NCBI GenBank assembly: GCA_907165135.1 | Contig: OU015567.1 | Span: 3,534,001-3,598,000, forward strand | Origin: Oikopleura dioica | Lineage: Eukaryota; Animalia; Chordata | Direction: 5' to 3' | Length of the DNA stretch: 64,000 bases | Part shown: positions 27,789-64,000 of the stretch, in pieces | How positions within the stretch are numbered: position 1 is the stretch's first letter | Layout: each line of letters begins with the position of its first letter | Made by a program: the position numbers and the translations under genes | Notes under the pieces: model-generated | The model's database searches: none | Told to the model about the DNA's origin: nothing | Seen by the model: the letters and a program-made list of their open reading frames with translations, nothing else

Positions 27789-28030
27789 GGAACTTCTTAC
27801 CCTTGGACGAGGAAAAAAAGGAACTGTTAAGGGTGGACGAGGAAAAAAAGGAACTTTTAAGCTTGGACGAGGAAAAAAAGGAACTGTTAAGCTTGGACGA
27901 GGAAAAAAAGGAACTGTTAAGAGTGGACAAGGAAAAAAAAGGAACTTTTAAGCTTGGACGAGTAAAAAAAGGAACTGTTAAGCTTGGACGAGGAAAAAAA
28001 GGAACTTTTAAGGGTGGACGAGGGAAAAAA
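27789..28030. repeat. 30-31-bp minisatellite, about 7-8 copies, at the host/cassette boundary
   Basis: Unit (C/G)TTGGACGAGGAAAAAAAGGAACT(G/T)TTAAG repeated head-to-tail. Confidence 0.92.
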
Positions 28031-28173
28031 GAAAATTTGAAATTGTGAATTTCGGGAGTTCATTAGAGAAATTCAAGGACCTGAAAGTGTACCTTGGAAA
28101 ATACAAGTGAAAAAATTCTAGGTTTTAAATGTCTCTGTTGGAAAATCCAAGAAGTGGAAAAAAAGGAAAAAAT

Positions 28174-28196
28174 GGGTTTTCTTAGGCCGGCAGGCC
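28174..28196 (-). promoter_or_regulatory. Recurrent GGCC-GG(N)A-GGCC motif, copy 1
   Basis: + strand GGGTTTTCTTAGGCCGGCAGGCC; on the - strand it is followed by a pyrimidine tract and an AG ~45 nt away. Confidence 0.55.
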
Positions 28197-28479
28197 ATTG
28201 GCTGCTGTTTTAGATCTACTTCATTTTGTTTGTTTGTTTATTAGTTTGTGTTTCTCTTGGAATGCGGTTTTATGAATAATTGCCTCTTTGTTTTATTGCC
28301 GCGTCATTATTACAGTGATATTACTGTTTTTGTAGTCATGAATATTCCGTGTTGCTCGACGTTTCTTAATTTAGTGTTCATTTTTTTTTTTTGTCTATTT
28401 AGTTTACCTAAAGTAAGTTGATTTGATTGCTGTGGTCTGATTGGCTCGCGTAAATTATTTTGGCTCTTTGATTGGAACG

Positions 28480-29113
28480 TTGTATTTGGTTATTTTAGTT
28501 ATCGTATAACGCCTTTATTCGTGCCGCTCTTCTTCGTCTTGCTTCTTCAAAGCGATTTGTGAAGAGAAAATATCCTGCGGACAATGTCAGATTTACTAGT
28601 TTTGTTTTGAATTTTATTTTTTTTACCTTGTATTTCATTGTTTGAGCTGTCTATCGTCTCTGCTTGCACCGGCGAGTCTTAAAATATTGTTGGTGGTTGT
28701 TGTTTATTACGCGTTGTGTTTTGGTTGTCATATATTGTGTTACCTGAGTTTTCTGTTGGAATGATGTCGTTCTCCCCTGTTGTAATGCTTGGTGCCGAGT
28801 GTTGAGTATGAATTCGTGTGATAAAAGTGATATCTGTTTTATGGAATTTTGTCAGCTGTAGGCAATTCGGTTCTGGACAGCGAAATAATGGCGGCTTTGT
28901 ATTTTTTGGGTTGTAACCTCCTTGTTGGTGACCTTACTATGGTTCTATACTGCCATTGTAAATGTTTGTAATTGATTAAAGAACCTGGCCTATTATACAG
29001 GTTAAGCAGCAAATGTGCTTGCAATTGAGATTAAAAACTTCGCGTCGAAATTCATTGTCAAACTTTGTTTTGCACACGTTGCATATATTCAAATCAGTGT
29101 TATTTTCGCTCAT
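28480..29113 (-). CDS. RING-HC finger protein
   Basis: MSENNTDLNICNVCKTKFDNEFRREVFNLNCKHICCLTCII, then next exon FRCPEPNC (C3HC4). ATG sits just after an acceptor-like TTCAG, ~120 nt behind the Vasa-like stop (operon-like). 3' end approximate. Confidence 0.7.
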
Positions 29114-29230
29114 AAGTGATCTGAATTATGTTCGTTTATATGTTAAAGTTCTCGCGACAATAAATGAGTAAATAATGTTTATCATATAAAAATAAAAGGA
29201 TTCAGAATCGTTTTGAAGTTAATAAATTTA

Positions 29231-31290
29231 CTAATCAAGGCGGTAATTTCTTTCCATTCGTTTTAAAAACGCGGGAATCTCATTTTCATCCTCTTTGCAT
29301 TTCTTGATTAAATTGGCCGCGTGTTTTTGATCTTCCGATGTTATAAAGCTGATTATCTCACAATTTTTTGTCTTGTTTGCCAGTCGTTCTATCCTATTCA
29401 ATATTTTCATTATGCTTGAGGAAATTCTAGTTACTGCTGGGTGTAGTGCATAAATTTTTTCGGAAAGTCAAAGTTGACAATTTTTTCTTCCTTGATTTCA
29501 AGACCTCGGCTGATTCCGTTCGTTGCAATGATGATGTTTTTTCGTTTTGTCTATTAATATTATTAAGAAACTGATTGTATATCCCTTTCTGCGTGATGAC
29601 CGCGGACAACTCTCATATTTTGTGGATATGTTCCTTAGGTGGGATTTGTTAACCTGTCACATTTTGTGCCGTCAAACCCTTATCTTATTCCATTCTCGCT
29701 TGCGGACATTGAAATGCTTTCTGATGATTTCACCGACAATCTGCCAATCGACGACCTTAATGATTCTGTCCGAGAAAAACCGGCTGAAAACGAATCCGCT
29801 GCGGTCATAGTCAAAGGCAGAATCATCCCTCTTCCGTATTCGATTCGTAAATTGGCAACCGAACTCAAGATGGTAACCACTTTTCTTCTCCACAAAATAT
29901 GAGAGTTGTCCGCGGTCATCACTTGAAAAGAGCCGACCCTATTTTAAATCCATTAGTTTCTTACGTGAATGTCTCGAAGTTTTCTTTCTCGATGTCGGTG
30001 ATTTTGTCCTCCGTGTATTGCCGTGGCATTGAATCCGTGAGTGACAAGTATCGTCTCGACTAAGTCCGCATTATATCTTGTGTTTGTTTGGATGAGGATC
30101 TGGTTGCCTCTGTTTTGATCACAAAGTTGAATTGTTCGATAGAGTTTATATTGCTGCTCTACATGTTCAAAGGTTTCTACTATTCAGATCAGGGCTGACA
30201 TTTGGATGATTCACTTACTTACTCACTTAGTTTCCGCCTTTTGCAATAAGACTGGGTTGTATTCTTTCGTACAGATATTCGACTTAAGAGTGTCGCAGCA
30301 TTGTCTTTTTTAATTGGTTACTCGAAAAATTATCTTTGAAGCCAGTGAGACATTTTTGCCAGCCCTGATTCGTAGATTTTGATTCTTTTTTTCACCAATC
30401 GACAAAAAGATATATTGTTCGTGTAGGAATCTTCTTGCTCGCTTCTGCAATTGAATGTCGAATGTTGAGGAGAAAATTGCTGTTGTTCTGGAATGACTAT
30501 TCTTCCGTAGATACCAGTTGATTTCGTCAAGACATCTGTCTAACCCGTCATTAATCATAAAGTTTGCATCATCCAGTATAAGAAATTGACATCTTTCTGC
30601 TGGGATTATCATTCTTGATAGTAAAGTTTTTATTTGACCCGGGGTGCCGATCACGATGTTGCATCCTTCATAGATTTGTCGCGCTGTTTCTTGAATACTT
30701 AATGCAGATTTTTATAATTTACTATTAATTGATATTATATCATACTCTTCTCCACCGCACGCGATAATTGGAACGATTCCGGTGTTTTCTCCACAAAACT
30801 TGAAGCAATCTGTATATAATCGGGAAGCAAGTTCTTTTGTTGGTGATACGATGATGCAGTCTATTTTTCCGCTCGGTCTTTTTTTTTGTTTTTCATCGTT
30901 GGTTGACTTTAAATAATTGATGATTGGAATCATCATTGCTGCGGTTTTTCCTGATCCCGTTTGTGCGGTGGCCATCAAATCTTTTCTCTCGCTTAATATT
31001 TTGATTGCGTACTGTTGTATTGGTGATGGCTTTGTGTACAACAGTTGTCGTATATTGATTTGCATTTCTGGACAGAGATGCATATCGTGAAATGTTGGTG
31101 TGTAGTACTTTTCCGCGACACATTTGATTTTTTTTTCATTGACATCATATTCTGTGACATTTACCGGGAGATTTTCGTTGATTGTGAGCTTTGTCATGCT
31201 TGCGGTTTGTGCGGGGTCTTTTTGCAACTTATTATGGTAAGTAGGTTTGTCAATCGTGCTTTTTACCTTTTGTTCCGAACCCACTGACAT
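29231..31290 (-). CDS. Vasa/PL10 (DDX4/DDX3)-family DEAD-box protein with degenerate catalytic motifs
   Basis: Q motif FHDMHLC...YTKPSPIQQYAI; motif I DLMATAQTGSGKTAA; Ia SPTKELA; GCNIVIGTPG; II LILDDAN; III FSST; ATAIHGG; V IATNGISRGLEI; VI HYTQQIERLA; C-terminal EIPAFLKRM*. Short introns; linker exon at 30190-30330 unresolved. Confidence 0.85.
29593..29922. mobile_element. 330-bp segment bounded by 34-bp perfect inverted repeats inside an intron of the Vasa-like gene (MITE-like or inversion)
   Basis: GTGATGACCGCGGACAACTCTCATATTTTGTGGA at 29593-29626 and its exact reverse complement at 29889-29922; no TSD seen. Confidence 0.65.
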
Positions 31291-31400
31291 GGGTCGGGAA
31301 TTATTCGTGGCCGACGCTATCAAAAGTCTATTCATCTGAATTATTAAAATAATTGTCATTTGTGATCTATCGCAATAATCTGCTGCAGCTAGCTAAACGT

Positions 31401-31423
31401 GGGTTTTCATAGGCCGGGAGGCC
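31401..31423 (-). promoter_or_regulatory. Recurrent GGCC motif, copy 2 (~110 nt upstream of the Vasa-like ATG)
   Basis: + strand GGGTTTTCATAGGCCGGGAGGCC. Confidence 0.55.
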
Positions 31424-31695
31424 ATGTGATTGCATCTGCTGCCTATTGCTATCTGCTTATGCGAAAATTGCATTTTGTTTATCCAGTTCTATATTTCCGC
31501 GGCATTTATTGACATTAATGTTTCAGTCTTTCATTCAGCATCGTTCGTCGTTCTGTAATTTTGCATTTACATGGGTTACTTACTAATGTTTACCTTTATC
31601 AGTTAGTACGCGGTGTGATTCTTGTGTAATGATGGAGGCGATTTTCAACTTCTTCCAATTTCGTTTTGAATTTGTTGATTTCCATCACTTGATCT

Positions 31696-32236
31696 TTACG
31701 CTCGTTTAATGCGGATTCCAATTCTTCTTGGCTCATACCATTGCTTGCTAACTGAAATTAGCTTATAGCTATTTAATATACATGGTTTTATTACCTCGAT
31801 ATATATCATCCATCCTGAATATGCCTCACGCAATGTCCTCTGAAGGTTGTCGAATATGTCCAATATGTCTCGTTGAACAACCATCTCAAGATCACTGTCT
31901 GTTCCGATTCTAAATTTAATAGTGGAATAGTTCTTTCTTCTATGGTACCCAAAATGGTTAAGTTGCAATATTGTATTGTCAGCATGCTGATGCCATCTCG
32001 CTAGAGTATCCATTGATGGGAGCCCCTCATGCAAGATTTCCTTGGGTGATGCCATTCTTGGAGATTTAATCTAAAAATATTAGTTGAATCCATGGTTAGC
32101 CGCGTCTTAGTGGGTGGGTTTGAACAGGCTCATAAATATCCCATTGTGAAGCAGTGAAATCATCTGGTGTTAGGTCTTGTGATGCCCACTTTGACGATAC
32201 CTCCGATTCTATTTTCTTTGAAACACACGCACCCAT
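31696..32236 (-). CDS. Orphan protein with N-myristoylation-like start (MGACVSKK)
   Basis: ATG directly after an acceptor CAG; MGxxxS motif; joins ORF 31696-32055 in frame only through a non-canonical GG-AG intron. Confidence 0.4.
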
Positions 32237-33027
32237 CTGAAGTCGGAAAGTTTTAGAATTGCCCCACACTTGATTCAGTGTTTTAATAAAAATAACCGTG
32301 TCTTTTTATTCAGAATTTGAATTAAGAAATTCTTGAGCTTCTTTCTTCATTTTGTTTACTTTTTCCCAAGAAACGATGACTTCGTTGACAGGATGACCGC
32401 TTTCATGTACCATTTGTTTTACTTCACTAAATTTTTTGTGAATTTTTTTGTAACTTTGACCAGGGGTGACTTTTGACATCGGGGTTTCGAGCAAAATGGT
32501 CTATTTTCGGGCATAAAGCGTTTGGTCGGGCATTCAGACGGCTCAGTCCTTAAAATTTGGCTGGGCAATAGCGGGCATTTTTGGCATTTTGGCAATTTGG
32601 TTTTTCGCGTGATGGGCGTTATTTGCCTCTCAAAAGCCCTCCGAAACATATTTTCTAGCTCCTATTTATTGAAATCCAATCATTAGTCCGATTTTTTTAC
32701 TTAAAAATCAAGAATTATTGCCCAGTTGGGCGTTTGATACATTTCGTTACCTGCCCGACCGGTCATTTTGGGCATTTTCGGTTATTTCGGGCAATCTGGC
32801 CATTGGCCCGACCAGGTGTTTTGGCAACTTTGCTTGGCTCGGCTCAGCCGGGCTTCCGGACGGCGCGACTCTTGATCTTGATTCCGGCCGGGCACTCGGA
32901 CGGCCAACCGACGATTTTTGCCTAAATGGTCTCTCCTGTGTTGACTTACCGGTCTGTGTTCCTTGCCATTCCTTGGATGTAAGTATCCATGAAGCGTCCA
33001 TTGTGCCTTATTTGTGATTTTTCTCTT

Positions 33028-33772
33028 TTAAGGCCGATCGTTAACCGGTCTAAGTGTTTGATTTTGTTTTATAAAAACATAATTACCGAGTATGTTTTTC
33101 ATTCCTTCTTTTTTGACCGCGTCCGATTGGCATTCATACTTGTTCTTTATCTTTTCGATAAGTCCTTCTAGTTCGTTCACATCATTCGTTATCTTTCCAT
33201 TATTGTATCCTTCTTGCGCACGCACGACGCGCTCCATTTTACTGAATCTAATATTTTGTTTGTGTTTCCTTTATTCAGTGCGGCAGTGAATATGTTTCGT
33301 GGCAATTAAAATTATATACGTTTTAACAGTATTTTTTTACGATGCTGTTCCAGCCTTTTGCGTCTTGTTGGGCTTTGATCGCTTCCATCTTCGCTTCATT
33401 CATTTCTGTAATTGGATTCTTTATAATATTTAATCTACGTTTCATGTGATTGAATCCGTTGACCTTCATACTCGTCAATGAGATTTTTCATTTGTCGACT
33501 AAAGGCGTCTTCATCGATGTTTTCTTTTTTTTTCGCGTCGCGGAACTTTATAACGGATATCCAGATAAGCGTGTGATTTTATATTAAGCTGGATTTGCTA
33601 ACGGTGTGGCATATGATTTGATATCCTTGACCCGTATAAGCATCATTGTTACTCTTTTGCACTTTACTTTCCATATCTCAATTCTCAGACGTGCGTTCGT
33701 TAGCGTTTTCTTTCTTATTCTTCTTACTATTTCTTTCAATTCATAATCCATTCTAAATTTCAACTTTGGCAA
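33028..33772 (-). CDS. Orphan charged/coiled-coil protein exons
   Basis: Short Lys/Glu-rich minus-strand ORFs separated by intron-sized gaps. Confidence 0.3.
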
Positions 33773-33879
33773 TTTTCAAAAACCATAATCATAGCACAAA
33801 ATGTAGTTAACCGACTATTATTGTTGTTCGTTTGTTAAATTGCCGCTTTTAAATTTTTTATTAAGAGAATCGTCTTCGC

Positions 33880-34731
33880 TCACGTTGATTTGAAGTGATC
33901 GTCATCTATGGTGCTGTAGATATGTCCTTAATAATTACTTTTTTGGAGTTAAATTTTTGGATACCATTATTCGATAATTCGCTGAGGATTATTCGAAGGT
34001 CCATTTCGTCCAAATCAAGGGCTTTGAAATCATGGAAGACATTTGCCCCTTGTTCATTTTCGTTGCTTAAGTTAAATGATTTATTGATTTATTTTTTGAA
34101 TGGGAATTACTTGATAACAACAGATAGAACTCCGCTCGTACGCTGGGAGAATTCATTGCTCGTGAATATTTTAGGCGGTGACTAAATTATCTTTATATAT
34201 ATTTTTTAAAGTTATCACCTTTTTTGGCTCCTCCTTCACTATTTTTTCTTCAAACATGACCGTATTTATCGCTTCCAACATGAAGCAACTCATCACCGAG
34301 GGAAATTGATTATCAATTTTTCGGATGACGTTCACAATCACGATTGTTTTGCCTATGATATATTTTTTTCTGGTGCTAAATTCTTGATTACCGTTTTTAT
34401 TAAGTCGGATTTTTCCAAAAACTTTGACTTTGTGGCCGATTTCTACTTTTACTAGCCGGTTAACGTCGACGAAGTTATAAATCCCGGTACTGTCGTCTAG
34501 AGTGATTAACCGCACCGGTATTTCATTTCGAGTTTCTTCCTAAATTTGTTTAAACTCAGTTTATTAATTTCTTATTACCTTGACGGACAAGACTGTTCCG
34601 CAAAAAACCGCAATGCCTATTTTCACCGGACGTCCTGCAATCACGTGCTGTCCTTCCGCGTTAACCATTCCTTCGCTTTTTAAGGTAGCGATGGTAACAT
34701 GAAATATTGTTTCGGGTATGCTTTTATTCAT
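33880..34731 (-). CDS. RPA2: Replication protein A 32-kDa subunit homologue (OB fold plus winged helix)
   Basis: OB fold IFHVTIATL...AVFCGTVLSVK|...LITLDDSTG...KVKVFGKIR; spliced C-terminus LRIILSELSNN|GHIYSTIDDDHFKST*, near-identical to the human RPA32 end (LSNEGHIYSTVDDDHFKST). Confidence 0.9.
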
Positions 34732-34829
34732 TCTAAATCATGCACTTTAGAATGCCTTTTTTTTTCTTTTCGGATGAAGATGTCGATATTCTAATAGACG
34801 AATTGAACGAAGAGATATCAGTTGAGAAC

Positions 34830-35480
34830 ATGAAATTTATTCGTCGTGTCAAAACATCCGATCCTTCTAACATCGCGGAGCTTCTTTCCGATGAATCGCG
34901 CGGCGTGTATCTTGGTATGAAGGCAAATGGATTTTCTGATAATGGTAACTTCTTTCAAAATATATTGATGAGTAGTTTAGGCGTTAATGCTGGTTTGCCC
35001 ACTGCTGTTTCTCTTTGTTCTTCAGGAGTTGACGGTAATTGACGTGTTTTCTGAAAAAAATAAAGTATATTAATTTTTTTAGGTCAGTTAAGTTCTGAAA
35101 GCCCAAACGATTGTGCGGATATGAAGAGTGCGTCTAATGCCAACACACAGGGTTTGAACTTTATTTATCTTTCATGTTTTTATTTTATTTTAGCATCTTC
35201 TTTAAGTACTCCGCGTCAGTCACCTTGTTGTCGTGAATTCGAGTTCTCTATGATAAATGAGGGATTTCTTGGGCCCTGGGAGGATGGCAATGGACCATGT
35301 ACTTTTCACTTTAATTACTATAAACATTGGCACGAGCAGATTAAGTTGGCCGAAGCAAAGAAGGCCCCGAATAGATCTGATTCGATCGAACCTGAAGTCA
35401 AAGCTCGTAGGCCCGCGCAGGAAGATTATTACGATGACTTTGATGCTTATATGGACGAATTTGGTGCCGCTTATTCCTAA
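34830..35480 (+). CDS. Three-exon orphan gene, head-to-head with RPA2
   Basis: Clean GT-AG introns (~35036-35082, ~35152-35193) join MKFIRRVKTS...GVD|GQLSSE...TQ|ASSLSTPRQSPCCREF...GPCTFHF...AAYS*. Confidence 0.55.
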
Positions 35481-35624
35481 TCATCTTCAATTTGGTTAAA
35501 AATGCCACAATAAAGTTTATCTACTTGGCAACAAGTTTTTACCTTATCGATGTAATTTTCACAGCTGTGTATTAACGCGGCTAATTTCTTATTTGTTTCA
35601 AACAGGTGTCCATATAATGCAGGA

Positions 35625-36651
35625 AGTCGTAGTCTGAAGTGAATGATAAGTATGGGCGTATGTAAGGTGGCGTGAGTTGTGCCGTGAGCAAGTTACGGTC
35701 ACTCTGTGCCTGATTTTTAAGGTCGGTGCACCATTCCGAAGCCCGGGGAGTATTCTCCCAACTTCCGTGGTAATCACCTCCCTGTGTTATATAAAAATCA
35801 TTGATACGTACTCCCTGAAGTGCTATTTTTCGATTCATATAAATTCGACGCGTCTCTTCTGTGAGTTGTTCGTAGCCTGAAATGAATGATAAGTATGGGC
35901 GCATGAAAGGTGGCGTGAGTTATGCCGCGAGCAATTTACGGTTACTCTGTGCCTGATTTTTAAGGTCGGTGCACCATTCCGAAGCCCGGGGAGTATTCTC
36001 CCAACTTCCGTGGTAATCACCTCCTTGTGTTATATAATAATCATTTGATACGTACTCCCTGAAGTGCTATTTGTCGATTCGTATAAATTCGACGCGTCTT
36101 TTTTGTGAGTTTTTTCGTAGCCTGAAATGAATGATAAGTATGGGCGCATGAAAGGTGGCGTGAGTTGTGCCGCGAGCAATTTACGGTTACTCTGTGCCTG
36201 ATTTTTAAGGTCGGTGCACCATTCCGAAGCCCGGGGAGTTTTCTCCCAACTTCCGTGGTAATCACCTCCCTGTGTTATATAAAATCATTGGATACGTACT
36301 CCCCGAAGTGCTATCTTATTGTTCGTTTAAATTCGACGCGTCTTTTTTGTGAATTGTTCGTAGCCTGAAATAGATGATTAGTATGGGCGTAGAAAGGTGG
36401 CGTGAGTTGTGCCGCGAGCAAGATACGGTTACTCTGTGCCTGATTTTTTAGGTCGGTGCACCATTCCGAAGCCCGGGGAGTATTCTCCCAACTTCCGTGG
36501 TAATCACCTCCCTGTGTTATATAAAAATCATTTGATACGTACTCCCTGAAGTGCTATCTTTGGCTCGTTTATATTTGACGTGTCTCTCCTGTGAGTTGCT
36601 GGTAGCCTGAAATGAATGATAAGTATGGCCGCATATAAGGTGGCGTGAGTT
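35625..36651. repeat. Tandem array 1 of ~243-bp units (about 4.2 copies)
   Basis: TAGCCTGAAAT anchor at 35873, 36118, 36361 and 36603 (spacings 245, 243, 242); conserved core GGTCGGTGCACCATTCCGAAGCCCGGGGAGT.TTCTCCCAACTTCCGTGGTAATCACC. Confidence 0.95.
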
Positions 36652-36979
36652 AGTAGTTTTCCCGAAAGATATTCTTCTATGATTTTTTCAAGGGTTTTCA
36701 CGACTCACCTAAGTGTTGGGAACCGCGTTGGACAAGCTGACACTCTGAACGAAGCGATCTGAGGCGAAGTGTTACTTTTGATCATCCTAACCCTTAATTC
36801 CCCTTTAATGCTATTAAGAACGCATGTGGGATGCCATTCTAAAAAAATTATATATCAGGCAGAGCTTTGAGATCCGATTATTCATGATGCATATTGAATG
36901 GCTTTTCAGTTATGCAGTTTCTTTTTACGGCGTCTTTCATGCGTCATTCTGAAACGTATATTATATTTCATTAAATTCG

Positions 36980-49338: not shown

Positions 49339-49354
49339 TTGAAATTTTTTGTTA

Positions 49355-51998: not shown

Positions 51999-54900
51999 TT
52001 ATAGTCTTGCTTTCAGGCTTGTTCCAAACATGCATCGTAGAAAGCCGGAAATAATTTGTAATTGTTCTTCGCTGTACTGCCATTTCTTTATATGGGCAAT
52101 AAATCGCAAATTGGCCATCGTTGGAGGATAATTATGGCTCGCTTCTTTTAATGAGCGGGCGATTTCTTCTATTTTGCCTTAAAGTGAAAGATTACTTGTC
52201 TGGCTTGTATTCTGAACTTTACACTGTAAATGATTACCTGGTGTCAATGTTTCGAGGCCGACATCTTCAAGCCTGATTGGTTTTCCGCAGGCAATACATT
52301 CTGACATGATTTCCGTCACTCTAGCTAGTGAGATATGCTCCTTCAATGCAATTTGATTGAGCGTTTCTCCGTCCAGGTATCGTTTGTAGATTATCCAACT
52401 GCGCAACCGCAAGTATTTGCCCGCTTAATTTAATAATACTCATTGCGTTGAAATGGTCATACGTTTTTTTTCTGCCCATGTCTGCTCTGGGTTGGTAATC
52501 ATCGCATATGTAACGTCTTCTTCTTCGTACATATCTTTATTGACTTCCAGTTCCGGGTATTGTGCTTTATACTTAGCCGTCCATATGTAAAAACTTCGGT
52601 ACATTTTCGCCGCGGCTACCGTCATTCGTGGAATTTTACACACTTAATAAAAGTTATATTAATGTATGTGTTTCTTGCTACTTGATTCTTCTGTTGTCGG
52701 TCGCCACAGTATCACTCGCTCCAAAAGTTCTCTACTGAAGGGAAATGTTGGTGTTTTAGATTTCGCATATTCCCGCGTCAGTTTTTCCATGATGGAGTAC
52801 ATCATCTTTCTATAACTTTCTTCGTACACATCTTCTTTCGGTTTTTCCTTTTGTTGAGTTTGCGCAATTTCAACTCCGTCGAACACTGCGAGCTCTTGTT
52901 CATCCTTCAGTTTAATCTCTGATTTCGGATCAATCAGAAAATCACGTTCTCCTTTCGAAACCACTCGGACTGCCTTCATATCTGTTGTGAGCACTTCAAA
53001 TATCACGATTAAGGGTTTTTTTCTACTTTAATGATTTCTACCTGTAATGAAGGGTTCTGATGCATTCCTCATGAAACTAAATCCGCGATCCGATACGACC
53101 ATCCTTACCGATCCTTCGCCTTTATAATCGGCGAGATTAAGGTAATCGCCGAGGATGAGGGCTCTCGCCACCGCATAGTAATGAGCTTTCTACAAAATCG
53201 TTAATTATCATTTCCTATCATCTTACTGTTTTGTTGGTAGATTTTTTCAACGCTCGTGCCAGAACATTGGTAAAATTTGATTTTCTATCGCATTCAATAA
53301 CTGCTTCCATAACGATAAGTGCTTCGTTCCGAATGCTAACGTAATGCTTCAGTTCTGCCTTGTAGTCTTTTTAGGGATTTATGAGTTGATTATGTTAACT
53401 GGATCTCAGAAACAGAAAATGTCCTCATTATCCTTTCTTTGTTTCGTGCATATTCTTCATTTTCCCTGAAGCAATGATCGCAACAATGTGGGAGACCGGT
53501 TATCTCCGATTCCTCATCTCGGTTGAAAACGTGAAGCAAGACCTCTCGAAGACATCCTCGTCGCTTTAAAGCATATTCCGCGTGAAGAAGTTCCAGATAC
53601 TTTTGGATCTTATTTTCCAAAAGCGGCTCTTTGGTTGCTGTCTGCCGGTGGAATGGGGTGAGCTTTTTGTCAACAAAGATAGTAGCCGAGGCTTGGTCTC
53701 CGTTTCGTCCGCATCGTCCGCTCATTTGTGAAAGTGCCGAGAGAGATAATGGCGTTCCCCATATTACTAAAAAGTATTTTCATGTCTATATCTCTATAAT
53801 CTTACCTGTCTTCCGCAATGTTCGGTCGTCGTGGCCCATGCCGAAAGCCACTGTGGCAATTATTGCATCGAGTTTGCCTTCGGTGAAATCTTTCACTGTT
53901 TTCCGCCTTTGCTTTTCTTCGTTTACCCACGGCTTTGTTTTATCCTCGTTCTTTTTGATTCTAGATGTTCTATTTAGGTTTTTCAGATGCAAAATCTAAG
54001 AATTACCCGAAATATTTTCCTATCCTCCGCATATCGAAAAATCTTCCAAGGTTTTCGAATAGGAATTCGCCTTCTGACTTCACATTGATGTAAATAAGAA
54101 CTCGCTCCTTGAATCGATACAGTTGTCTGTCGCTTAATTCGTTTAATTTAATTATTTCATGAATTACTTACTGTACGACCTCGCCGAGTTCGAGAAAATT
54201 GGCCCTCCTTAAATCGGTGAACAATGCTTCCGCCGAAGCATGCTTCGTATCGCTTTTCTTGTTGGTTTTATTGAGTATTCTGTACGTGATATTTTTCCGG
54301 TCTGTTGTTCCTTTGATCAGCTTTGCCTATATATCATTTTAACGTGTAAAGAAATAAGTAATGACTACCGTTTTCATTCGAAGAATTTTTCTTATCCCCT
54401 TTTCTACGTGTTGTGTCGCAGTGGCTGTGCACGCAAGGAAAGGTACATTTGAGATGTCTTTGGCAAAACCGAGAAATTTCATTTCTGCTCGAAAGGAACT
54501 CCACTCAACACTCGTATGGACTAGAACAGTGTTATAATTTGATTGCTTTTTGTTTTTATTACTTTCGTCGAAAATAACCGCGTTTAGGGGATTTACGGCG
54601 TTAAGCATCTGCAGTACAAGATGGTTTTTGTTCAGACTTTCGGGAGATGCAAAAAGGACGCGGTAGTTCTGGAGTCGTGTTTTTTCCTTCCTTGCCGCCC
54701 ATTCAAGAAAGTCCGTGTCCTTCAATTTGGTATTGCTGATGCCGGCATTATCCAGAAAAGCCATTAAGTCCGCACGAATATTATTAACAGGGAGCACTAT
54801 AAGAGTGTAACCCTTTTCTTGAAGTGCCGCGTAGGTGAGAAATACAGCCGATTTTCCGCTACCAGTGCTCATAACTAGAAGCACATCCTTCCCGTCCAAC

Positions 54901-55079
54901 ATTGTACTGATCGCGTCATATTGCCAAGGTTTGAGGTTTTTGTGTCCGATTATCTCCTTGAATTTTCGTTTGACAGTTATGTATCGTTCTTCGTTTGATA
55001 ACGATTCGTTGCGGTAATTGATTTTTGCGGTATTGCTTCGATTCGACTCATTAACCCCATTTTCGTTCATTCTGAACAT
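51999..55079 (-). CDS. WRN-like RecQ helicase (helicase core, RQC Zn and winged helix, HRDC, C-terminal HTH); no exonuclease domain seen
   Basis: LKPWQ, TGSGKS, ASPE, spliced FDE|IH, ACTATAT, TDRKNITY, IATVAFGMG, spliced RKT|VIWGTP...QMSGRCGRNG, CLREVLLHVF...CCDHC, HYYAVARALILGDYL (RQC), FSRELLERVILWRPTTEE (HRDC), YLDGETLNQIA...ECIACGKPI (WRN-type HTH). Possible frameshift near 52130. Confidence 0.88.
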
Positions 55080-55179
55080 TTATCTATTGTTAACTTTAGT
55101 CTTCTCTATTCACTCTTCATTCTGTCGTTAAGTTGCGCTTTTATATCCTCCATAGCCATCTTGAAACTTTCTGAAAAAT

Positions 55180-57966
55180 TTATTTATTAAGCGTCTTGAT
55201 TTCTTTGTGATTACCTTCACATTCCTCGATATTTTTTTTAATATCAGTAAGACTGGACCGCATTTCGTTTCTTTCTTTCTCCAATCTCTCCTGGTTTTTT
55301 TCCGCAATTCGCAATTTTATTGCGTCTAAGAAAAAAAGGTTATCTTCATCGAATTTTGTTTGTCTTACCTTTTTTGATCTGAGCTCGGACGGCTTCGAAC
55401 CAGCCAGGTGCCTCCATGAAATTATTTGCGATGATTTTTTTGCATGAAGGACACTCTCCGGGATTTTCGATAAATTTTTCAGAACATCCTTATATATGAC
55501 ATTTTTTTTCATAATTTTTCCTTACTTTTGCAAAAAATTAGAAAGCATTCTTTGCACGTTTTCGACCCTTTGTCCGGGTAGATTTCACAAGAACCGCATA
55601 GAAAGAAACGTGCATTTGGCGACCGTGGCATTCTTAACGAGAAGATGTTTAATTTTTTGTATTTTAAATGAATTTTCGTTCGTTTATAAAGTTAAATATT
55701 TCACGGTTAAGCGCGTCTAATTCACTTTTTCGGCGGGATTCCGTTTTAATTGTCTTCCCATCATCACGCGTTGAGTGTACATAAAAATCGACTGGGTGCC
55801 GGACTTCTATTTTATTAAGTTTGCGTTGCGTTTCGTTTTGTCCTTTACGTTTCGAAAGATAATATGCACAAACTCGCTGGGGCCCTCCATTTCGATAAAA
55901 GAAATCCGCGGTTCCTCTGTTCAAAAGGTGAGCGTTTTCGATATCCATCGAGGTAATGTCTACAAACGGGCATCGTAGTCTTTCATCGTCTTCTTTTATT
56001 TTCGAGATGCAGCCATACGCTTCCTATTCTATTATTTGTATAAGAATGCATTGTATATCATTTACCGTTGAGTGTTCTCTTGAGGAAATCCAGTTTATCA
56101 GGTGATGATCGCGTTTAGCTTCGTCTTTTGTCGTTTTTTTAAAAAGATTTTCGTAAAGGACTGTGAGTTTTTCAGGTTGTACCCTTTCTTTGAATCATGA
56201 AATTTCTCAAATATTGAGACGTGTTATTTCGATGATACCTTCCCAATATTTTTCGCGAATGAGATGATATGTAACTTCATATTATTCGTCGTGTTCGAAG
56301 TATCGTTTTTGATGGAGCCGAGTAATTTTTGAATGCTTAAAGTAAAACTCATTGTAATAAATAACGTCGTCATACCATGGTGGGAAACTGTTTGCCACGT
56401 CAAAGAAATTATTCACTTGAACGTTTTGAATGTTTCTTTTATCCGTAAAGATGACAGTCACTAGCATTTCGACAGCTGTGTATAATTCTTCTGAATAGTA
56501 ACCATCCGCTATTGTTTTTGTTTGTGGAATGATTTTTCGCCCAAACAAAATTTTGGCGTACGCTGAGAGTTCTTTTTCTGTAATTATGAATGTTTCCTTT
56601 TTTTTTCGCACTCATTGATGGTAAAAATGGGGATGACGAGTGGCTGGCTAAAATTAAAGGATAAGAGTCGAGCCGTCCGATTTACGGCCGAGTGGGTCAG
56701 TTTAGTGATTTTGAAAATACCCGAAACTTTTCCTTCCGCTGTATTTTACCGATTCCTGCCGGAACATTGTTTTCTTGGATTTCATCATTGCTGACAGCAA
56801 CTTCGTAGAGACTGTTCATGTGGCTGGCTTGGGTCAGCGTTTGCTCTCGACTGTTTATAATCTACGGGGACATTTGATTATCCGCATTATGTGAGCAAAG
56901 GCAGACCCAAGATGCCCATGAATTTTTTGAATGTCCGCAATGTGTTCTTCCTTTTGAATCTCGATCTCACATTCCTCTATTCTCCCGTCGAGATAATTTA
57001 TTATTTGAATTTTCTTTTCTTTGCTCAGAGATGCTATGCGAAATCCAAAGAGGTTGATTTCCGCGGCAATCAATTTCTATAATTTACATTTTTAATCGTT
57101 GCTATTGAAAGATACCTTTTTGGTTGTTTCTTCTAACATTGCCCTTGCCCCTCGTAGCAACCAATACACATAAGCATCCACCATAAGTGCGTGACAGTCG
57201 TTCTTTAAATATGAAATTTTTTTTCTGGTAGTCATAAACTGTGCAGTCAGCTACTAGTTGCCACCGTGTCGCATTTTCTAACCCTCGTTCTTCCCGCTAT
57301 CAGCCCGATAAGGCCCTGCCAAAGGGACTTTGGTCTTCATAACTGGCTGAGAATGTGCAACTTACGCACGAGCGCTGAAGAAAACGAGCTTTCTTACTGT
57401 TTTAAGTTGAAGCGAGGGTAGCGATCAGTGGCGGATGACACAGTTTCATACCGAAAGACACCAAATAATGTTTTTATCGGCGATGAGTTTTGACTGAATG
57501 TATTCCGCCTTATCTTCTTCCGCTGAAGTTTGCATCTGATTGCACGCGTCTATTTATTTTTTTTAAATAAAATTGATGAGACTTTCACCATTGATTTTCT
57601 TCATCATTTCAAGTCGTTCCGACGAGTATTTAAGCATTTCTTTTTCTTTTATATAAACGTTGAAATTGTGATAATTGAAGCCAGCGTTAAATAGAGTAAA
57701 TCTTTTATTAAATTTCTATTTGATAAAAGTCTAACTATGAGCTTCTATTAAGTAAGAGCTCGCGTCGATGAATAATAATGGTTTACTCTGAAAAGAGCTC
57801 GGCATAATCGATTAAGGTATTGAAGGCATCCTCGAGTACTGAATAAATGCGAGTCCTTTCCTATGTAAAGATGATCTTCGTGATAAATATCTTTAAAGTC
57901 GATTTCTAACAGAGACAAATGCGGATTTAAAAAAGAATATTCCGAACAGAGATGAAATATTGTCAT
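55180..57966 (-). CDS. Orphan multi-exon gene(s), with weak degenerate RING/IBR (Ariadne-like) hints
   Basis: Serial ORFs; fragments HLFSTRGCLQYLN, ADKNIIWCLS, KNDCHALM..YVYWLL and GECPSCK resemble RBR/RING sub-motifs but lack several Cys. Confidence 0.3.
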
Positions 57967-58310
57967 TCTAAAATGAAAATCATTGCTTTATTTTTTAGAG
58001 TGGATTTGATTGCAGGATAGGAAGGGTTTCCATGGGAAACTGAAAATTCGGATATTTTTCTTTTGATTGGAGAATACTGACTAGTCTTGCACTGGCTAAT
58101 GTTGGCGCTTTGGTACCGATAAATTGAATGTTCTCCCCGAAAAATGCTTATAGAGATTATTAGTAAGGTTCTTTTACAGTCATTACCTAGAAAATTTCCG
58201 AAAATTAAATCCCCGTAATGATTTCCGGGTTTGATGGACCATTCTTCGATGTTTATCCGCGCAAGTGGATATCTTTTGTATTTCCAACCTTAATAAAAAA
58301 AAACGAAAGA

Positions 58311-58332
58311 GGGTTTTTGTCGGCCGGAGGCC
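58311..58332 (-). promoter_or_regulatory. Recurrent GGCC motif, copy 5
   Basis: + strand GGGTTTTTGTCGGCCGGAGGCC; - strand continues TCTTTCGTTTTTTTTTATTAAG|GTT. Confidence 0.55.
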
Positions 58333-58868
58333 TTACCGAAGCCGAGCAGTTTTCCGTCGTGTACATTATTGATGACCGCTGCAAATTTGATCGAATTTTT
58401 AAGGTAATTCTTGTCGTTTTCTATTATTTTAATATGGTTTTTCAATTATGGATTACCTTCCAATCTGTTGCATTTGAATATAATTTGTTCGCAGTTTTTT
58501 TTATTTAGTAGTATTTTTTTTCTTCTTGATATTTTTTGAGAAATAATTCAATTTTGTCGTCGGTATTCTTTTCGTTTATTTCATTCATTCTAAGTGGGTA
58601 TAATTTTAGGTTCAGTCATATGAATTTTCTCAGTTTCATTATATTGGGTTTATTTACAGTGTTGTCCTCATCGTGTTTGCGTTTCATTCTTAATGTCTTG
58701 TCAAACATATATTGCGGTAAGGGGATATCAGTTTTCTGTACCTTCATTATTCCTCAAATGGAGGTTCAGTCTTGATGTCTTTCTCCAAATCTATATCTTT
58801 CGGTTCTTCTTTCATTTCTTTGTCAAGTTGTGCTTCAGTCTTTATATCGTTCGTCACATCCTCATCTT

Positions 58869-59431
58869 TCAATTCTTCTTTCTTGATCCGTTCGTTGTAC
58901 TCCTCCGGCTCACATGTTGACATATCCTAGATATTTTTAATTGACATTCTATTCTTGATTTTACCGAGTCACTGTCGTATTCATAAAATCGTCGCTCTTC
59001 TTCTTCGATGGCTAGTTTCCGCTTTTGTTGTTTTTTAAGCGCCTTTTTTGCCGATATCTGTCTTGGGAAATGTTCAGCGATGACCAGTGGGTCTTTGAAT
59101 TCTTCGAAAATTGCTTTTCGTGCAATCGCGTAGTCAATTTCTGGTAATAGAATCCTTTGTTTATGATGATGATTACCTTGATTCTCGGAATGCTCCATTT
59201 TTTTCGCTATATTCCTGGCGATTGTGTAGAGGAAGTTTGAGCTGGCTGTTTTGATTCTGATAACTTTGTCTATCATTTTATATTTATTAAAGAGAACCTT
59301 CCTTTAGTCAAACACTCTTTTGCTTCTCTTTTAAAATCCATCAGTGGACTCGCTATTTTCATAATTCTTTCAACGCTCCTAACCGATAGTTGCGTGTGAA
59401 AGTTATCGCTTTCGTTACGGTTCTTACTCAT
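58869..59431 (-). CDS. H2B-type histone-fold protein (NF-YB / POLE3-CHRAC17 / DR1 family)
   Basis: MSKNRNESDNFHTQLSVRSVERIMKIASPLMDFKREAKECLTK|ASSNFLYTIARN...KQRILLPEIDYAIARKAIFEEFKDPL aligns with the NF-YB fold (LPIANVARIMK..AKDAKECVQ..F..KTI..EDIL.AM...F..Y.EPL). Requires a GA-AG intron at 59246-59301. Confidence 0.78.
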
Positions 59432-59538
59432 TCTAAATGATATTGAAAGTATTATGCTTTGTGAAAGTTAGTCTCCATAGGTGTAAATCTTGGTTCGTTA
59501 TGTTCGACGTGTTTGGTAGGTTTATCGTTTCCTAAAAC

Positions 59539-61070
59539 GAATGATTAGTTTTAGCGCATGTAAAATGGCGTGAGTTGTGCCGCAAGCAACTTACGGTTTC
59601 TCTGTGCCTGAATTTAAAGGTCGGTGCACCATTCCGAAGCCCTGGGAGTATTTTCCCAACTTCCGTGGTAATCACCTTCCTGTCTTATTTAAAAACCATT
59701 TGATACGTACTCCCTGGAGTGCTTTCTCCTTGTTCGTTTAAATTCGACGCGTCGTTTTGGTGAGATGGTAGTTGCCTGAAAGGAATGATTAGTTTGAGCG
59801 CATATAAAATGGCGTGAGTTGTGCCGCAAGCAAGTTACGGTTTCTCTGTGCCTGAATTTAAAGGTCGGTGCACCATTCCGAAGCCCTGGGAGTATTTTCC
59901 CAACTTCCGTGGTAATCACCTTCCTGTCTTATTTAAAAACCATTTGATACGTACTCCCTGGAGTGCTTTCTCATTGTTCGTTTAAATTCGACGCGTCGTT
60001 TTGGTGAGATGGTAGTTGCCTGAAAGGAATGATTAGTTTGAGCGCATATAAAATGGCGTGAGTTGTGCCGCAAGCAAGTTACGGTTACTCTGTGCCTGGA
60101 GTTAAAGGTCGGTGCACCATTCCGAAGCCCGGGGAGTATTTTCCCAACTTCCGTGGTAATCACCTTCCTGTTTTATACAAATACCATTTGATACGTACTC
60201 CCTGGAGTGTTTTTTTTTTGTTCGTTCAAATTCGACGCGTCGTTTTGGTGAGATGGTCGTTGCCTGAAAGGAATGATAAGTATGGGCGCATGAAAGGTGG
60301 CGTGAGTTGTGCCGCAAGCAAGTTACGGTTACTCAGTGCCTGAATTTAAAGGTCGGTGCACCATTCCGAAGCCCGGGGAGTATTTTCCCAACTTCCGTGG
60401 TAATCATCTTCCTGTCTTATTTAAAAATTATTCGATACGTACTCCCTGGAGTGTTTTTTTTGTTCGTTCAAATTCGACGCGTCGTTTGGTGAGATGGTCG
60501 TTGCCTGAAAGGAATGATAAGTATGGGCGCATGAAAGGTGGCGTGAGTTATGGTATGAGCAAGTAACGGTAACTCTGTGCCTGAATTTAAAGGTCGGTGC
60601 ACCATTCCGAAGCCCGGGGAGTATTTTCCCAACTTCCGTGGTAATCGCCTTCCTGTCTTATTTAAAAACCATTTGATACGTACTCCCTGGAGTGCTTTCT
60701 TCTTTTTCGTTTAAATTCGACGCGTCGTTTTGGTGAGATGGTAGTTGCCTTAAAGAGATGATAAGTATGGGCGCATGAAAGTTGGCGTGAGTTGTGCCGC
60801 AAGCAAGTTACGGTTACTCTGTGCCTGAATTTAAAGGTCGGTGCACCATTCCGAAGCCCGGGGAGTATTTTCCCAACTTCCGTGGTAATCACCTCCCTGT
60901 CTTATTTAAAAATTATTCGATACGTACTCCCTGGAGTTCTTTCTTCTTGTTCATTTAACTTCGACGCGTCGTTTTGGTGAGATGGTCGTTGCCTGAAAGG
61001 AATGATAAGTATGGGCGCATGAAAGGTGGCGTGAGTTATGGTATGAGCAAGTAACGGTAACTCTGTGCCT
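59539..61070. repeat. Tandem array 2 of ~244-bp units (about 6.3 copies), homologous to array 1, same orientation
   Basis: GCCTGAAAG anchor at 59774, 60018, 60262, 60503, 60747 (variant GCCTTAAAG) and 60991 (spacings 244, 244, 241, 244, 244). Confidence 0.95.
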
Positions 61071-61239
61071 CAATTTCCCTTCTGTATTTTAGATAATTAG
61101 CTTGATTTGTACTCACTTGAGTTTGATTCTTTCGTCTTGTTTTCATACTATGCGACATCAGTGAGTGGCATGTTTCTTAAAAAGTACGTTTATTCACTGT
61201 TTTTGAGAGGTTTGCCTGATAAAAGTTTGACGGCGCAAG

Positions 61240-61515
61240 CTAACATATGATGGTTGTGGTATGGTGTCAATTAATTTTGAGCTGGGATACAAGAGAGCTG
61301 GAACAAGAGATTATCGTTACACATACTTATGCGGGGGAGAATACAAGAGGCTCGGAGAAGGTGCGTGGCGTGCAAGCTGACATATGATGGTTCTGGTTTG
61401 GAGTCTATTAATTGAGCACGGAGAACAAATTTCGTTTGAACAATGGATACTTTCGCTTTACATATAATGCGAGGGAGAAAACAAGAGGCTTGGGGAAGGA
61501 GAAAGGCGTGGCGGA
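61240..61515. repeat. Degenerate tandem duplication, ~136-bp unit x2
   Basis: GCT(A/G)ACATATGATGGTT.TGGT.TGG.GTC.ATTAATT...ACAAGAGGCT.GG.GAAGG..GGCGTG at ~61240 and ~61376. Confidence 0.7.
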
Positions 61516-61596
61516 TTTAAATGTTTTTTTTTACTCTGTTGAATGTGCCATTATAAAACAAGGAAGTATAGAGGATTAGCGTCTGGAGTGGAGAGT

Positions 61597-63814
61597 TTAC
61601 TTATTTTCTTCCTCGTCTTCGTCAACTTCTGTGATCGCACTCAAGAGTGCTGCGTTGTTGATTTCTTCTTGATTTCCATCCAAATCAATTTGTTTATCAT
61701 CACCGAAGTATGGCGTTTCGGGGGCTTCTGCGCGTCTCACTTCGGCGATAATTCTTCTTTCCTGCGCATTTTGTTCCTCCTCGGCCGCGTTCTGTTGTTC
61801 TTCGGGAGCATTATCTTGTTCCCTCTCGGCCGCGTTTTGTTGTTCTTCGGGAGCATTATCTTGTTCCCTCTCGGCCGCGTTTTGTTGTTCTTCGGGAGCA
61901 TTTACTTGTTCCCTCTCGGCAATTTCATTCGTACCGCTAGGTAAAGTTCAACTTTCAACATTTTAAAAATAAGTGGATTACCGTTGTTTCTGTTCGCTGT
62001 TCATCTTTCCGCGAATCAGAGCGTTGCTTGTTCGAACTTGGAGGAGTTCTTGGTCTTCCGGTCGCAGAAGATCGATCGGATACTTATTCGATTGAATTAT
62101 GTCTGTCTATTTTGAAATTTACCTTATTCATGCTGTTTTTCACAGAGCAGAGCTCCGGAAAAAGTACCACGAGGATGTTGAGTGCATCACTATCTTTGTT
62201 CAGAGCTGCGTGATGCAATACAGACTCATTATCAATGTCGAGCTTCTTTAGCACAGCTGAATATTTTGACTTCATTTTCCGCAAGACATTGAGCATTTTC
62301 ATATCGATCAGAATATTTGCTGGCATCGATTGTTTTGGCCAGAACTGAAAGATGTCGAAACCGTCGTCTTCGAGAATGTAAGTCAATTTCCGCTCAATTT
62401 CCATTTTTCTTCATCGGAGAAGTCGGCAACATCGGTAAGCGCGTGGTAGCTCCAGTCATGGCCGTCTCGTGTTCGTGCAGGAAGAAGTTCTCGCGGAAAA
62501 CGATCCGCAATACGGGTGAATTGGGCGTATGGTGCGTATTTGAGAGCAACTCCAAGAATGTTCCCCTCTGCCTCGCCTCTGTAGTTCCAGGTAACAGTTG
62601 CATTCATGATTGTCGAGAGCATCTCGATGAGCCGATTCTTTTAAGTTTAACCGCGCTAGAGTTTTATTTATATAATTTTGTATGTTATCTCAACATTACT
62701 TTTTGAAATTGAGAATAACATCATAAAAGAGATCCGCTGTTTCTCCATAGCTCAACCAATCAAGAGCATTCTTCGACTGAGTGTAGACCCTAAACGTGTC
62801 GATGTCCCCTGTCTTAATGGCAATTTTGAGAACATATGCCACATTGCTGCCGTTCTGATCGCATTCCATCAAGAAGCGCATGATCTGATCCTGCATTGGA
62901 GTCTCGTAGAGATATCCGAGCCTTAACATCCTGTGAATCAGTTAAAAGTAATGGAAACTACGTTTGATAGGACTCCAATTTTCTGTCCATTAGTGACTTG
63001 ATAGGCCAACCGTCGCCGCCAGATGCTACCTTCATTTCCGTCTTCATGTCACTTAGCACACATTTTAGAAGATGGAGCCGCTCGTCGCTTTCCCAGAATT
63101 CTATGGTGAATTAATATAAAATTGTTCTAACTTCGCTTCTTACGATGAATCATTGACAGGACCGATGGCATTTCATCTTGCTTCAACTTGTATCCAAACT
63201 CCTGGAAAATATCAATCATTTTCGCAAGTAGATATGGACCGAGTTTTCTTCCAAAAATCATTCCTTGGCCGACCACATTAGCCGCGTATTCTCTCAGGCA
63301 TCGGTGTAAAATCGACTCGCCGTTAAAATCAAATGACGATCTTTCACCTTGTGCACTTTTTAGGAGCTCTGAATAGTAATGGAACTTTACGAAACTAAAT
63401 TAATCTTCGCTACCTTTAAGGCAGATCTTTTGGCCCATGAAAGCCATTTTCATCGGAACTGTCCAAGCAGTTTCGTCGAGGACCAAGCTGTTCATGGAAT
63501 CTTGCTGCACCAGGAAAATTGTTATGTCTTTCGCGTTGGCCTCTTTTACGGATTACATTAATTATTTTATAGAAAATACTGCCTTGACTAATAGTATTTC
63601 ATGACAGAATATGTACTAATAAGTGATCCGTTACAATGGCAATGTCAAGAAGACTATATGCCCGCTGAGGTGGAAATCCAAGCGTTTGGTTAAAAGGAGC
63701 GTCGAAGGTGAGGCTGCACCAGTTCGCATTGAAGATTTGTATAAACTTCGCCGCGTTATCATATGTCAAGATTCCACGCAATCGCTCATCGAGCGCGTCG
63801 ATATTTCGAACCAT
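61597..63814 (-). CDS. Multi-exon ankyrin-repeat-like protein with acidic repeat tail; may extend further 5'
   Basis: Ankyrin-like segments YSLLDIAIVTDH, DETAWTVPMKMAFMG, DFNGESILHRC, DQNGSNVAY, NESVLHHAALNKDSDALNILVVLFPELCSVKNSMNK|YPIDLL; tail (EQQNAAEREQDNAPE)n. Confidence 0.62.
61781..61920 (-). repeat. 45-bp coding tandem repeat, about 3 copies
   Basis: TCGGCCGCG anchor at 61781, 61826 and 61871; encodes EQQNAAEREQDNAPE on the minus strand. Confidence 0.88.
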
Positions 63815-64000
63815 TCTGAATCATTGTTTATACCCCTTGATAGCTTGTAGAAGGTGTAGAAAGGGGTGCAGAAAAATGCCGGAAAGGGCTGCGGCAACGA
63901 ACTACTAATAAATGTAAGCAATTGTTAATCGATCTGCCTATACAAATACAAAATGTTGTTTTTTATTATTTTACATATTTTCTACAAATGGCGGTGAAAG

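Follow-up and report, generated by a model that had tools for sequence, protein, structure and literature searches.

The window analysed here is a stretch of 64,000 nucleotides (nt) from Oikopleura dioica (assembly GCA_907165135.1, contig OU015567.1, positions 3,534,001-3,598,000), and all positions below are counted within it. From position 27772 to its end the window is occupied by the left 36.2 kb of a giant element (27772..64000, minus strand) whose genes are directed to its left end. The element is delimited by contigs of the empty site, by branch points at 27771/27772 and by a step in AT skew. The character of the strand shifts at about 27.8 kb and stays shifted to the window end, both in AT skew and in the minus-strand open frames, which are split by short introns (37-60 nt in the element). 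The skew is -0.21 to -0.24 across most of 27772-59526, compared with -0.04 in the flank at 25301-27771. At least 20 genes, many of them orphans, are present in this part. Gene counts and limits are approximate because the gene finder over-merged genes, and exon order was checked only against an annotated O. dioica protein (P0001) and a host vasa locus from a marine metagenome (L006). An initial annotation of this DNA had described a one-strand, intron-rich run of genes; skew and introns agree with this, the exceptions being two inferred plus-strand genes (34737-35477 and 44343-45400). The region is a real, discrete insertion, polymorphic at its site and with a base-precise left end, and the unit is apparently an undescribed Oikopleura element family.

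Left end and presence/absence at the site

The flank immediately outside the element (27008..27771, minus strand) is a member of a multi-copy host family that was cut by the insertion, as seen from paralogous contigs and its open frame. The word content of 25301-35300 was compared across 24 listed sequencing runs, and contigs or unitigs of four runs (X1, X2, X4 and X6) were aligned; such contigs show presence better than absence. The words are 80-92% present in five DNA runs (four samples from two studies) and 16% present in X6; the run with the highest share may come from the source sample. No RNA run is among those listed as containing these words. Pieces from X7, a metagenome run, are short and of low depth along the element and do not enter the evidence.

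Record 15 of X6 aligns to 26937-27771 (835 nt, with 7 other letters and 4 gaps) and then continues into 274 unlike letters, i.e., it is the empty site. In the alignment of 27700-27850 it has 0 differences over the last 72 nt before 27771, while the host-family paralogues in many contigs differ by 6-13 per 58-66 nt. The record therefore represents the same locus. Record 17 of X4 breaks at 27771 likewise, with 50 unlike letters beyond. In X6 no long near-identical piece is listed within 28053-35600, while long contigs of X2 cover flank and interior, with 0-2 differences in the interior pieces. Presence and absence across samples, by which the initial annotation proposed to judge the unit, are thus both seen, the site being filled in X2 and empty in the contigs of X6 and X4.

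The position of the end follows from several breaks. The flank unitigs of X1 and X2 end precisely at 27771, the depth of X6 is 0 at 27772-27783, and record 16 of X2, which holds a diverged version of the end with 9 differences over 69 nt, begins exactly at 27772 after 51 nt of a different flank. Since all these and the breaks in X6 and X4 converge there, we place the left end at 27772. The start at 28030 given earlier is corrected accordingly, so that the unit takes in the 30-bp array described below; of the termini sought, the left one is found and the right one lies past 64000. A few very long unitigs align to 27700-27850 (89,243 nt in X1; 17.8, 19.2 and 27.2 kb in other runs) and may be hemizygous family members.

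The terminus, 5'-GGCGTAATAC... (27772..27801, plus strand), reads GGCG, or ...ACGCC on the opposite strand; in gene direction the element ends in ...TATTACGCC. A 30-bp tandem array of 7.6 copies (27802..28031, plus strand) is located 30 nt inside the end, and its units are predicted to be transposase-binding repeats. Subterminal repeats of this kind are an architecture of Mutator/Foldback and CACTA-type elements. The summed contig depth on the array is high in all four runs, X6 included, and the two matches of the 30-bp unit in IMG/VR are unrelated. No inverted copy of the left end is present inside the window.

The largest orphan gene and the element family

The element belongs to a family of diverged copies. 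Although this copy is missing from X6, contigs of that run do cover the 30-bp array. An X6 contig of 19,774 nt aligns to the RING-finger gene at 28495-29113 with 17 differences in 120 nt (depth 50.3), and X6 contigs of equal depth (50.3) align to the DEAD-box gene next to it.

The largest orphan gene (45877..51150, minus strand) would encode about 1,500-1,700 amino acids if it is a single gene. It has a conserved Cys/His domain and a linker rich in Asn and Gln, and is a candidate core gene of the family. In a HMMER search of 1.84 billion proteins, the sole match to its exon 47869-48381 is P0001 (g13223 of O. dioica, on the pseudo-autosomal region, PAR), at 57% identity. P0001 aligns exon by exon from 50610 to 47486 in the same exon order, and the two exons that encode the Cys/His domain reach 81% and 92% identity. 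The orphan is accordingly a genuine, conserved gene, and its one relative lies on the PAR. P0001 has no useful match in Pfam, PDB, phage or Atlas searches, and exon 47056-47412 has no match in the Atlas. A word-index protein search was blank for a RecQ exon and for 47056-47412 (both longer) as well as for 43251-43661 (near length); these blanks are weak. An HDLR word near 46750 was considered as a recombinase motif and dropped, since it does not stand at the required distances from LG and Y.

An alternative is that the region is a non-mobile island of host paralogues, sex-linked or specific to the germ line, in which the empty allele is a deletion and the co-orientation of genes reflects operons. 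Head-to-tail operons are common in O. dioica (PMC11067885), and the species has four vasa genes on record (PMC5830320, PMC4402516); here and below, papers are cited for the portions of their text that were available. However, the unit interrupts one copy of a host repeat family at a single base, and a second, independent end begins at that same base with a different flank. Diverged relatives are found on other contigs, and the strand polarity of a word, ACGCGG (see below), is seen in the element only. The sex-linked version, which the initial annotation had entertained, is further weakened by the depth of the X2 contigs, alike in flank and interior, and by the annotation of the homologue of the largest orphan on the PAR, not in a Y-specific region. 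We regard such an island as highly improbable, and the region is very probably a mobile unit of some kind.

A DEAD-box gene derived from host vasa

The DEAD-box gene (29232..31335, minus strand), first read as a Vasa/PL10 helicase, is indeed of Vasa/DDX3 type (PDB match, E 4e-20). A metagenome scan gave 4 loci from 79 candidates, all vasa-like, with 53% identity on the first exon. One of them, L006, is the host vasa, with an RGG-rich N-terminus and intact DEAD and HRIGR motifs. The element copy shares 46% amino acid identity with it over 393 codons, and 3/3 intron positions in the helicase core are common to both. At the level of sequence, these common intron positions show that the gene derives from host vasa and was captured as genomic DNA.

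The hallmarks of an active Vasa are absent from the element copy: it has no RGG region, DEAD is changed to DDAN in motif II, and motif VI is degenerate (QQIERL). It also carries two extra inserts. The protein is predicted to be ATPase-dead or decaying. Between the two copies dS is saturated (pS 0.77), too far for a selection test.

The genes of the element are accordingly not the sole orthologous copies of their kind, the canonical vasa being found in L006 in a different gene neighbourhood. Together with the empty site, the defined left terminus and the diverged relatives elsewhere, this bears out the initial proposal of a discrete giant element with host-derived genes and extra copies.

Some further details of these loci can be added. 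The same-strand neighbours of vasa in L006 (1-8550) read as ubiquitin-protease-like and geminin-like and are unrelated to the element genes, and two other metagenome loci, L003 and L005, are apparently spliced or partly spliced forms. Within the element copy, about 420 nt (29550-29970) with open frames on both strands stand in place of a 100-nt intron of host vasa. The stretch 29501-29656 is partly duplicated at 29877-30029, and 29550-29970 also matches other X2 and X6 contigs. All this points to a captured piece nested here.

RecQ, RPA2-like and other genes

The RecQ helicase gene (51999..55070, minus strand) encodes about 850 amino acids, in which Walker A, DExH, motif VI and the Zn cysteines look intact. 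Its best PDB matches are RECQ1-type (E 2.9e-16), followed by WRN (8e-9), and in Pfam it matches DEAD (5e-16), RecQ_Zn_bind (4e-4) and, weakly, HTH_40 (0.023). The RecQ family assignment of the initial annotation therefore stands, while its label "WRN-like" is possible at most, because the RECQ1-type structures outrank WRN.

The RPA2/RPA32-like gene (33880..34740, minus strand) was recognised at motif level. Its last exon is GHIYSTIDDDHFKST, and its C-terminal motif, GHIYSTIDDDHFKS, which we take to resemble that of RPA32, is the basis of the call. RNA reads of run X11 agree with the gene over its last 44 nt (33884-33927) alone and then diverge, as expected if the X11 lineage expresses a distinct RPA2-like gene. 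The exons have no Pfam, PDB or fold match, and the AlphaFold model (pLDDT 38.1, five strands, best Z 3.1) is too poor for use; PDB matches to AP-2 beta, VopV repeats and hexokinase were dropped as chance. From the RPA2 claim, the motif and the reads on these 44 nt thus remain, and profile or fold matches do not. X11 is uninformative on expression of the element because only 54 partial reads aligned, 51 of them less than 90% alike. A possible NF-YB/POLE3-like histone-fold gene (58660..59431, minus strand) is plausible by motif and weak by profile, its match to HapC having an E of 1.3. It was also suggested that the element carries its own replication kit. This stays conjecture: the searches turned up no gene for a polymerase, a primase or mobility, and neither RPA2 nor NF-YB is confirmed by the tools used.

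Two of four RING or RING-like genes, all on the minus strand, are identified by Pfam. The first (28495..29113, E 7.8e-5, RING at 28979-29125) has its relative in the 19.8-kb X6 contig mentioned above and is 50% identical over 40 amino acids to the RING at 38270-38434 of the second (37978..38700, E 5e-4). The two others combine a RING-like stretch with a coiled coil (40295..41126 and 55119..55632) and are recognised by eye, Pfam giving no RING match for the former and no match for the latter. A C2H2 zinc-finger gene (36950..37750, minus strand; Pfam E 0.001-0.004) and an ankyrin-repeat gene with a 45-bp coding repeat (61600..62640, minus strand; Ank_5 E 0.0095) are below the Pfam cut-off. The RING, C2H2 and ankyrin genes named at first are therefore secured in part, by the two Pfam matches.

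The remaining genes belong to no recognised family. On the minus strand these are two to three orphans rich in coiled coil (31500..33760, boundaries approximate), a multi-exon gene with a Cys/His cluster (38990..40250), a multi-exon gene of which one exon is without homologue at near length (42280..44139), and, from open frames and the gene finder, three or more genes at 55667..58480 and one at 62699..63820. On the plus strand, open frames suggest one gene each at 34737..35477 and 44343..45400, and in the latter the AT skew falls to -0.04.

Arrays, motifs and words

Two related arrays of about 244 bp had been noted, and both are confirmed as one family: 4.2 units of 243 bp (35627..36651) and 6.4 units of 244 bp (59527..61076), with a mean column identity of 92% over 10 units. 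The conserved core can form a 23-pair imperfect hairpin. One core of the second array folds with z -3.55 and one of the first with z -1.45, without covariation. We do not claim an RNA gene here, because a double change is found in 0/23 hairpin pairs and the folding of the whole 244-bp unit does not differ from that of shuffled sequence (z 0.21). Neither Rfam (27000-64000, E up to 1) nor ARAGORN gave a match. The 244-bp unit also contains the palindrome CGACGCGTCG, and beside the second array (61235-61448) is a 77-nt repeat in two copies, ending in "CACGCC...CTTT" type words like the array unit. A 70-bp tandem array of 3 copies is located at 41873..42081.

A pattern search confirms the five copies of a private motif reported earlier: GGCC-N4-GGCC at 28185..28196, 31412..31423 and 42166..42177, and GGCC-N3-GGCC at 48394..48404, in an intron confirmed by P0001, and at 58322..58332, in a predicted intron. 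Shuffled sequences contain on average 0.24 and 0.33 copies, against three and two observed; these means flatter the motif, because the patterns were derived from the copies themselves.

The five hairpins raise the idea of a large Helitron or Helentron that gathered host genes by terminator read-through, the hairpins being its successive terminators. Helitrons capture genes, can carry RPA and reach up to 39 kb in maize (PMC6431247). One GGCC motif is also located about 410 nt from the end of the element. However, the end in gene direction is ...TATTACGCC and not CTRR, the hairpins have 4-bp stems, 2/5 fold better than shuffles and two are placed in introns. The helicase is moreover a RecQ and not PIF1, and neither a PIF1 nor a Rep domain has a match among the window peptides in Pfam. 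This origin appears highly improbable.

The word ACGCGG occurs 32 times on the gene strand of the element outside the arrays, compared with 6.9 expected and 7 on the other strand; in the host part of the window the counts are 5 and 5. Another tally, over 27772-64000, gives 35 on the gene strand and again 7 in reverse outside the arrays. In 83 predicted exons it occurs 21 times, compared with 5.6 +/- 2.2 in 1000 synonymous shuffles. Codon-pair bias may contribute to this excess, because 14/21 are in one frame. Another stretch, 32525-33212, stands out by extra contigs that stack at 32870-32920 in X2, X6 and X7 and contains self-complementary GC-rich sequence (CCGAGTGCCCGGCC...GCCCGGCTGAGCCGAGCC), perhaps a small repeat or a conserved cis site.

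Search for mobility and viral genes, and the mode of movement

We suggest that the unit belongs to a family of giant cargo-carrying DNA transposons, likely moving by cut-and-paste, with a probability of roughly 50%. This reading is favoured because a base-precise end is common to the element and a diverged end, because of the subterminal array, and because RecQ has a precedent on AcademH and KolobokH elements. The transposase would be located past the window or be too diverged to recognise. It would bind the GGCG end and the 30-bp repeats, excise the whole unit and reinsert it elsewhere, and the diverged end in X2 would belong to another copy or be the inverted far end of this one. More speculatively, the RecQ and RPA2-like proteins might steer repair of the excision gap to copying from the sister chromatid, so that the donor is restored with a net gain of a copy. 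The vasa copy, with its degenerate motifs, might serve as a decoy that protects the element from silencing in the germ line. The RING proteins might remove host factors, and element proteins might have their cis sites in the 244-bp hairpin arrays and in the polarised word ACGCGG.

A number of observations weigh against this interpretation. A Pfam scan of 354 single-frame element peptides (68 + 286/291, with five low-complexity frames dropped and array frames excluded) gave no transposase, recombinase, Rep, polymerase or capsid, so that the hallmark genes proposed in the initial annotation (transposase, tyrosine recombinase, HUH-Rep, PolB or capsid) are without a match in the window. This absence is weak, because exons are short, some transposases evade Pfam and the element is incomplete in the window; Academ, Kolobok, Sola, Dada and KDZ transposases were missed by Pfam as of 2017 (PMC5751038). 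No listed contig spans the filled junction with 31 letters on both sides. The right end lies beyond the window, and neither the right junction nor a target-site duplication was read; inverted repeats are therefore not demonstrated. The size and the share of orphans exceed those of the DDE transposons described in the available text of a review, save virus fusions (PMC6431247). The vasa copy, with its two extra inserts, may simply be in decay. Multiple RING genes and dispersed hairpin arrays of about 250 bp recall large DNA viruses, and the 6-mer AATACA on both sides of the junction would suit a recombinase.

The viral features could mean that the element is an endogenised large nuclear DNA virus of some unknown lineage, integrating by a captured transposase or recombinase in the manner of Teratorn or the endogenous nimaviruses, with the window holding an accessory arm and the core genes further right. 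It has four RING or RING-like genes, an ankyrin gene, many orphans and two arrays of about 244 bp with an imperfect hairpin core, which resemble the homologous regions of invertebrate DNA viruses. The 89-kb X1 record aligned to the 151-nt junction stretch would suit a large viral unit, though its matching part is unlisted. Host-like genes with introns are also present in endogenous nimaviruses, some of which have inverted ends of 46 bp with a Ginger2 transposase (PMC10871703). However, no viral family is found in Pfam among the 354 peptides, 0/56 element peptides matched PHROGs, and IMG/VR is without a relative for two exons or the array core. Almost every gene has short host-like introns, and the one relative of the largest orphan among 1.84 billion proteins is from O. 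dioica itself. An AlphaFold model with pLDDT 44.6 is too poor for recognition of an integrase (tyrosine recombinase or Ginger2) or of nimaviral core genes. We consider a viral origin unlikely.

The AATACA words are located just outside (27766-27771) and just inside (27777-27782) the end, and are either a target-like end sequence or chance. If the former, the element could be an animal counterpart of the fungal Starships, in which a captain gene at the far 5' end would excise and integrate the unit by means of such short sequence at the ends. The captain tyrosine recombinase of Starships is the first gene at the 5' end, and because the genes here run towards the left end, a 5' captain would fall outside the window. 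The gene polarity, the 6-mer repeated over the junction, the intron-rich cargo and the large size all fit this. On the other side, neither the window nor P0001 has a tyrosine-recombinase motif set or Pfam match, it is DDE elements that more typically have tandem arrays near their ends, and AATACA may be chance in AT-rich DNA. A recombinase element is, in our view, distinctly unlikely.

Host context

O. dioica is without classical end joining, and its genomes undergo scrambling that is extremely fast and of unknown mechanism (PMC11067885). In one assembly, 44% of the predicted repeats are unclassified (PMC8008620). The element is a concrete candidate to test at the breakpoints of this scrambling, and some of the extra "host" paralogues, such as the four vasa genes reported, may be element cargo. 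It can be speculated that the vasa of the element is a natural anti-silencing decoy. We further put forward, as a tentative idea, that the units form a new class: Oikopleura elements of 40-90+ kb whose core genes are conserved orphans and whose moving enzyme falls outside the described families. In them, captured RecQ, RPA2 and histone-fold genes would control repair, the host being without classical end joining, and a dead vasa would serve as an anti-piRNA decoy. If this were true, such elements could drive the extreme genome scrambling in the species complex.

For completeness, the host part of the window contains a sulfotransferase gene (22102-23276, minus strand; Pfam E 4e-6) and an assembly gap of exactly 500 N (24725-25224), 2.5 kb left of the element end and within a gene with a repeated domain of about 130 amino acids. 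At 17330-19639 (plus strand) one open frame of 769 amino acids combines mucin repeats rich in Thr with a 396-bp duplication, and its tail weakly resembles phospholipase A2. Thr-rich repeats like these are also found at 9054-9343 and 14678-14789 on the opposite strand.

Comparison with known systems

The literature searched contains no description of the element; Repbase, subscription journals and supplements were outside its scope, and larvacean repeat libraries there may hold fragments. The available text of the O. dioica genome papers mentions unclassified repeats, Tor elements and four vasa genes and no such element (PMC8008620, PMC11067885, PMC4402516, PMC5830320). Nothing with this make-up is listed in the corresponding portions of a review of giant eukaryotic transposons (PMC6431247).

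Among DDE transposons, AcademH and KolobokH carry RecQ-family helicases (PMC10799480, PMC9587614), a feature shared with the element. In contrast to both, the element exceeds 36 kb, has at least 20 genes and shows no transposase beside the helicase. The 5'-RR terminus of Kolobok is present (GG at 27772-27773), while its TTAA target is not, as the flank ends in ATACA; KolobokP has other duplications of 3-5 bp (PMC9587614).

Teratorn, a piggyBac-herpesvirus fusion of 41-182 kb in fish, is likewise a giant chordate element with defined ends and many unannotated and host-like genes. However, the piggyBac terminus CCYT and its TTAA target (PMC10175614) differ from the GGCG end and ATACA flank found here. 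Of the herpesvirus core genes (polymerase, terminase, capsid), none is found by Pfam in the part within the window, and the element has dense introns of host type. The endogenous nimaviruses of crustaceans are also giant integrated DNA with intron-containing host-like genes, and the dispersed arrays of about 250 bp recall the homologous regions of white spot syndrome virus (WSSV). Their core genes are not detected by Pfam in the part of the element within the window. Nimaviruses insert in telomere repeat, 28S rDNA or (AT)n, whereas the site here is a member of a host gene family (PMC10871703).

The fungal Starships resemble the element as presence/absence insertions of tens of kb with intron-rich cargo, but here the host is an animal, there is a subterminal tandem array, and no captain recombinase is seen, the captain end being outside the window. 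Helitrons and Pack-MULEs likewise capture host genomic DNA with introns, some Helitrons carry RPA, and Foldback and Mutator elements have repeats inside their ends, as does the element. In contrast to the fragments found in Helitrons and Pack-MULEs, it contains near full-length genes and orphans conserved between diverged copies, with no RepHel or MULE domain detected, and its left end (GGCG / ...ACGCC on the two strands) differs from the 5'-TC and 3' hairpin-CTRR of Helitrons. Finally, none of the hallmarks of Polinton/Maverick elements (protein-primed PolB, integrase, capsid) is detected, although the 36 kb covered here come close to the largest members of this group (15-40 kb; PMC6431247).

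The unit thus behaves like a giant cargo-carrying transposon, whose assignment to a named family is not established. Fungi have such transposons in the Starships, and fish and crustaceans have them in the form of fusions with viruses. The class would be widened by a polymorphic family without a detectable known hallmark gene in one of the smallest animal genomes.

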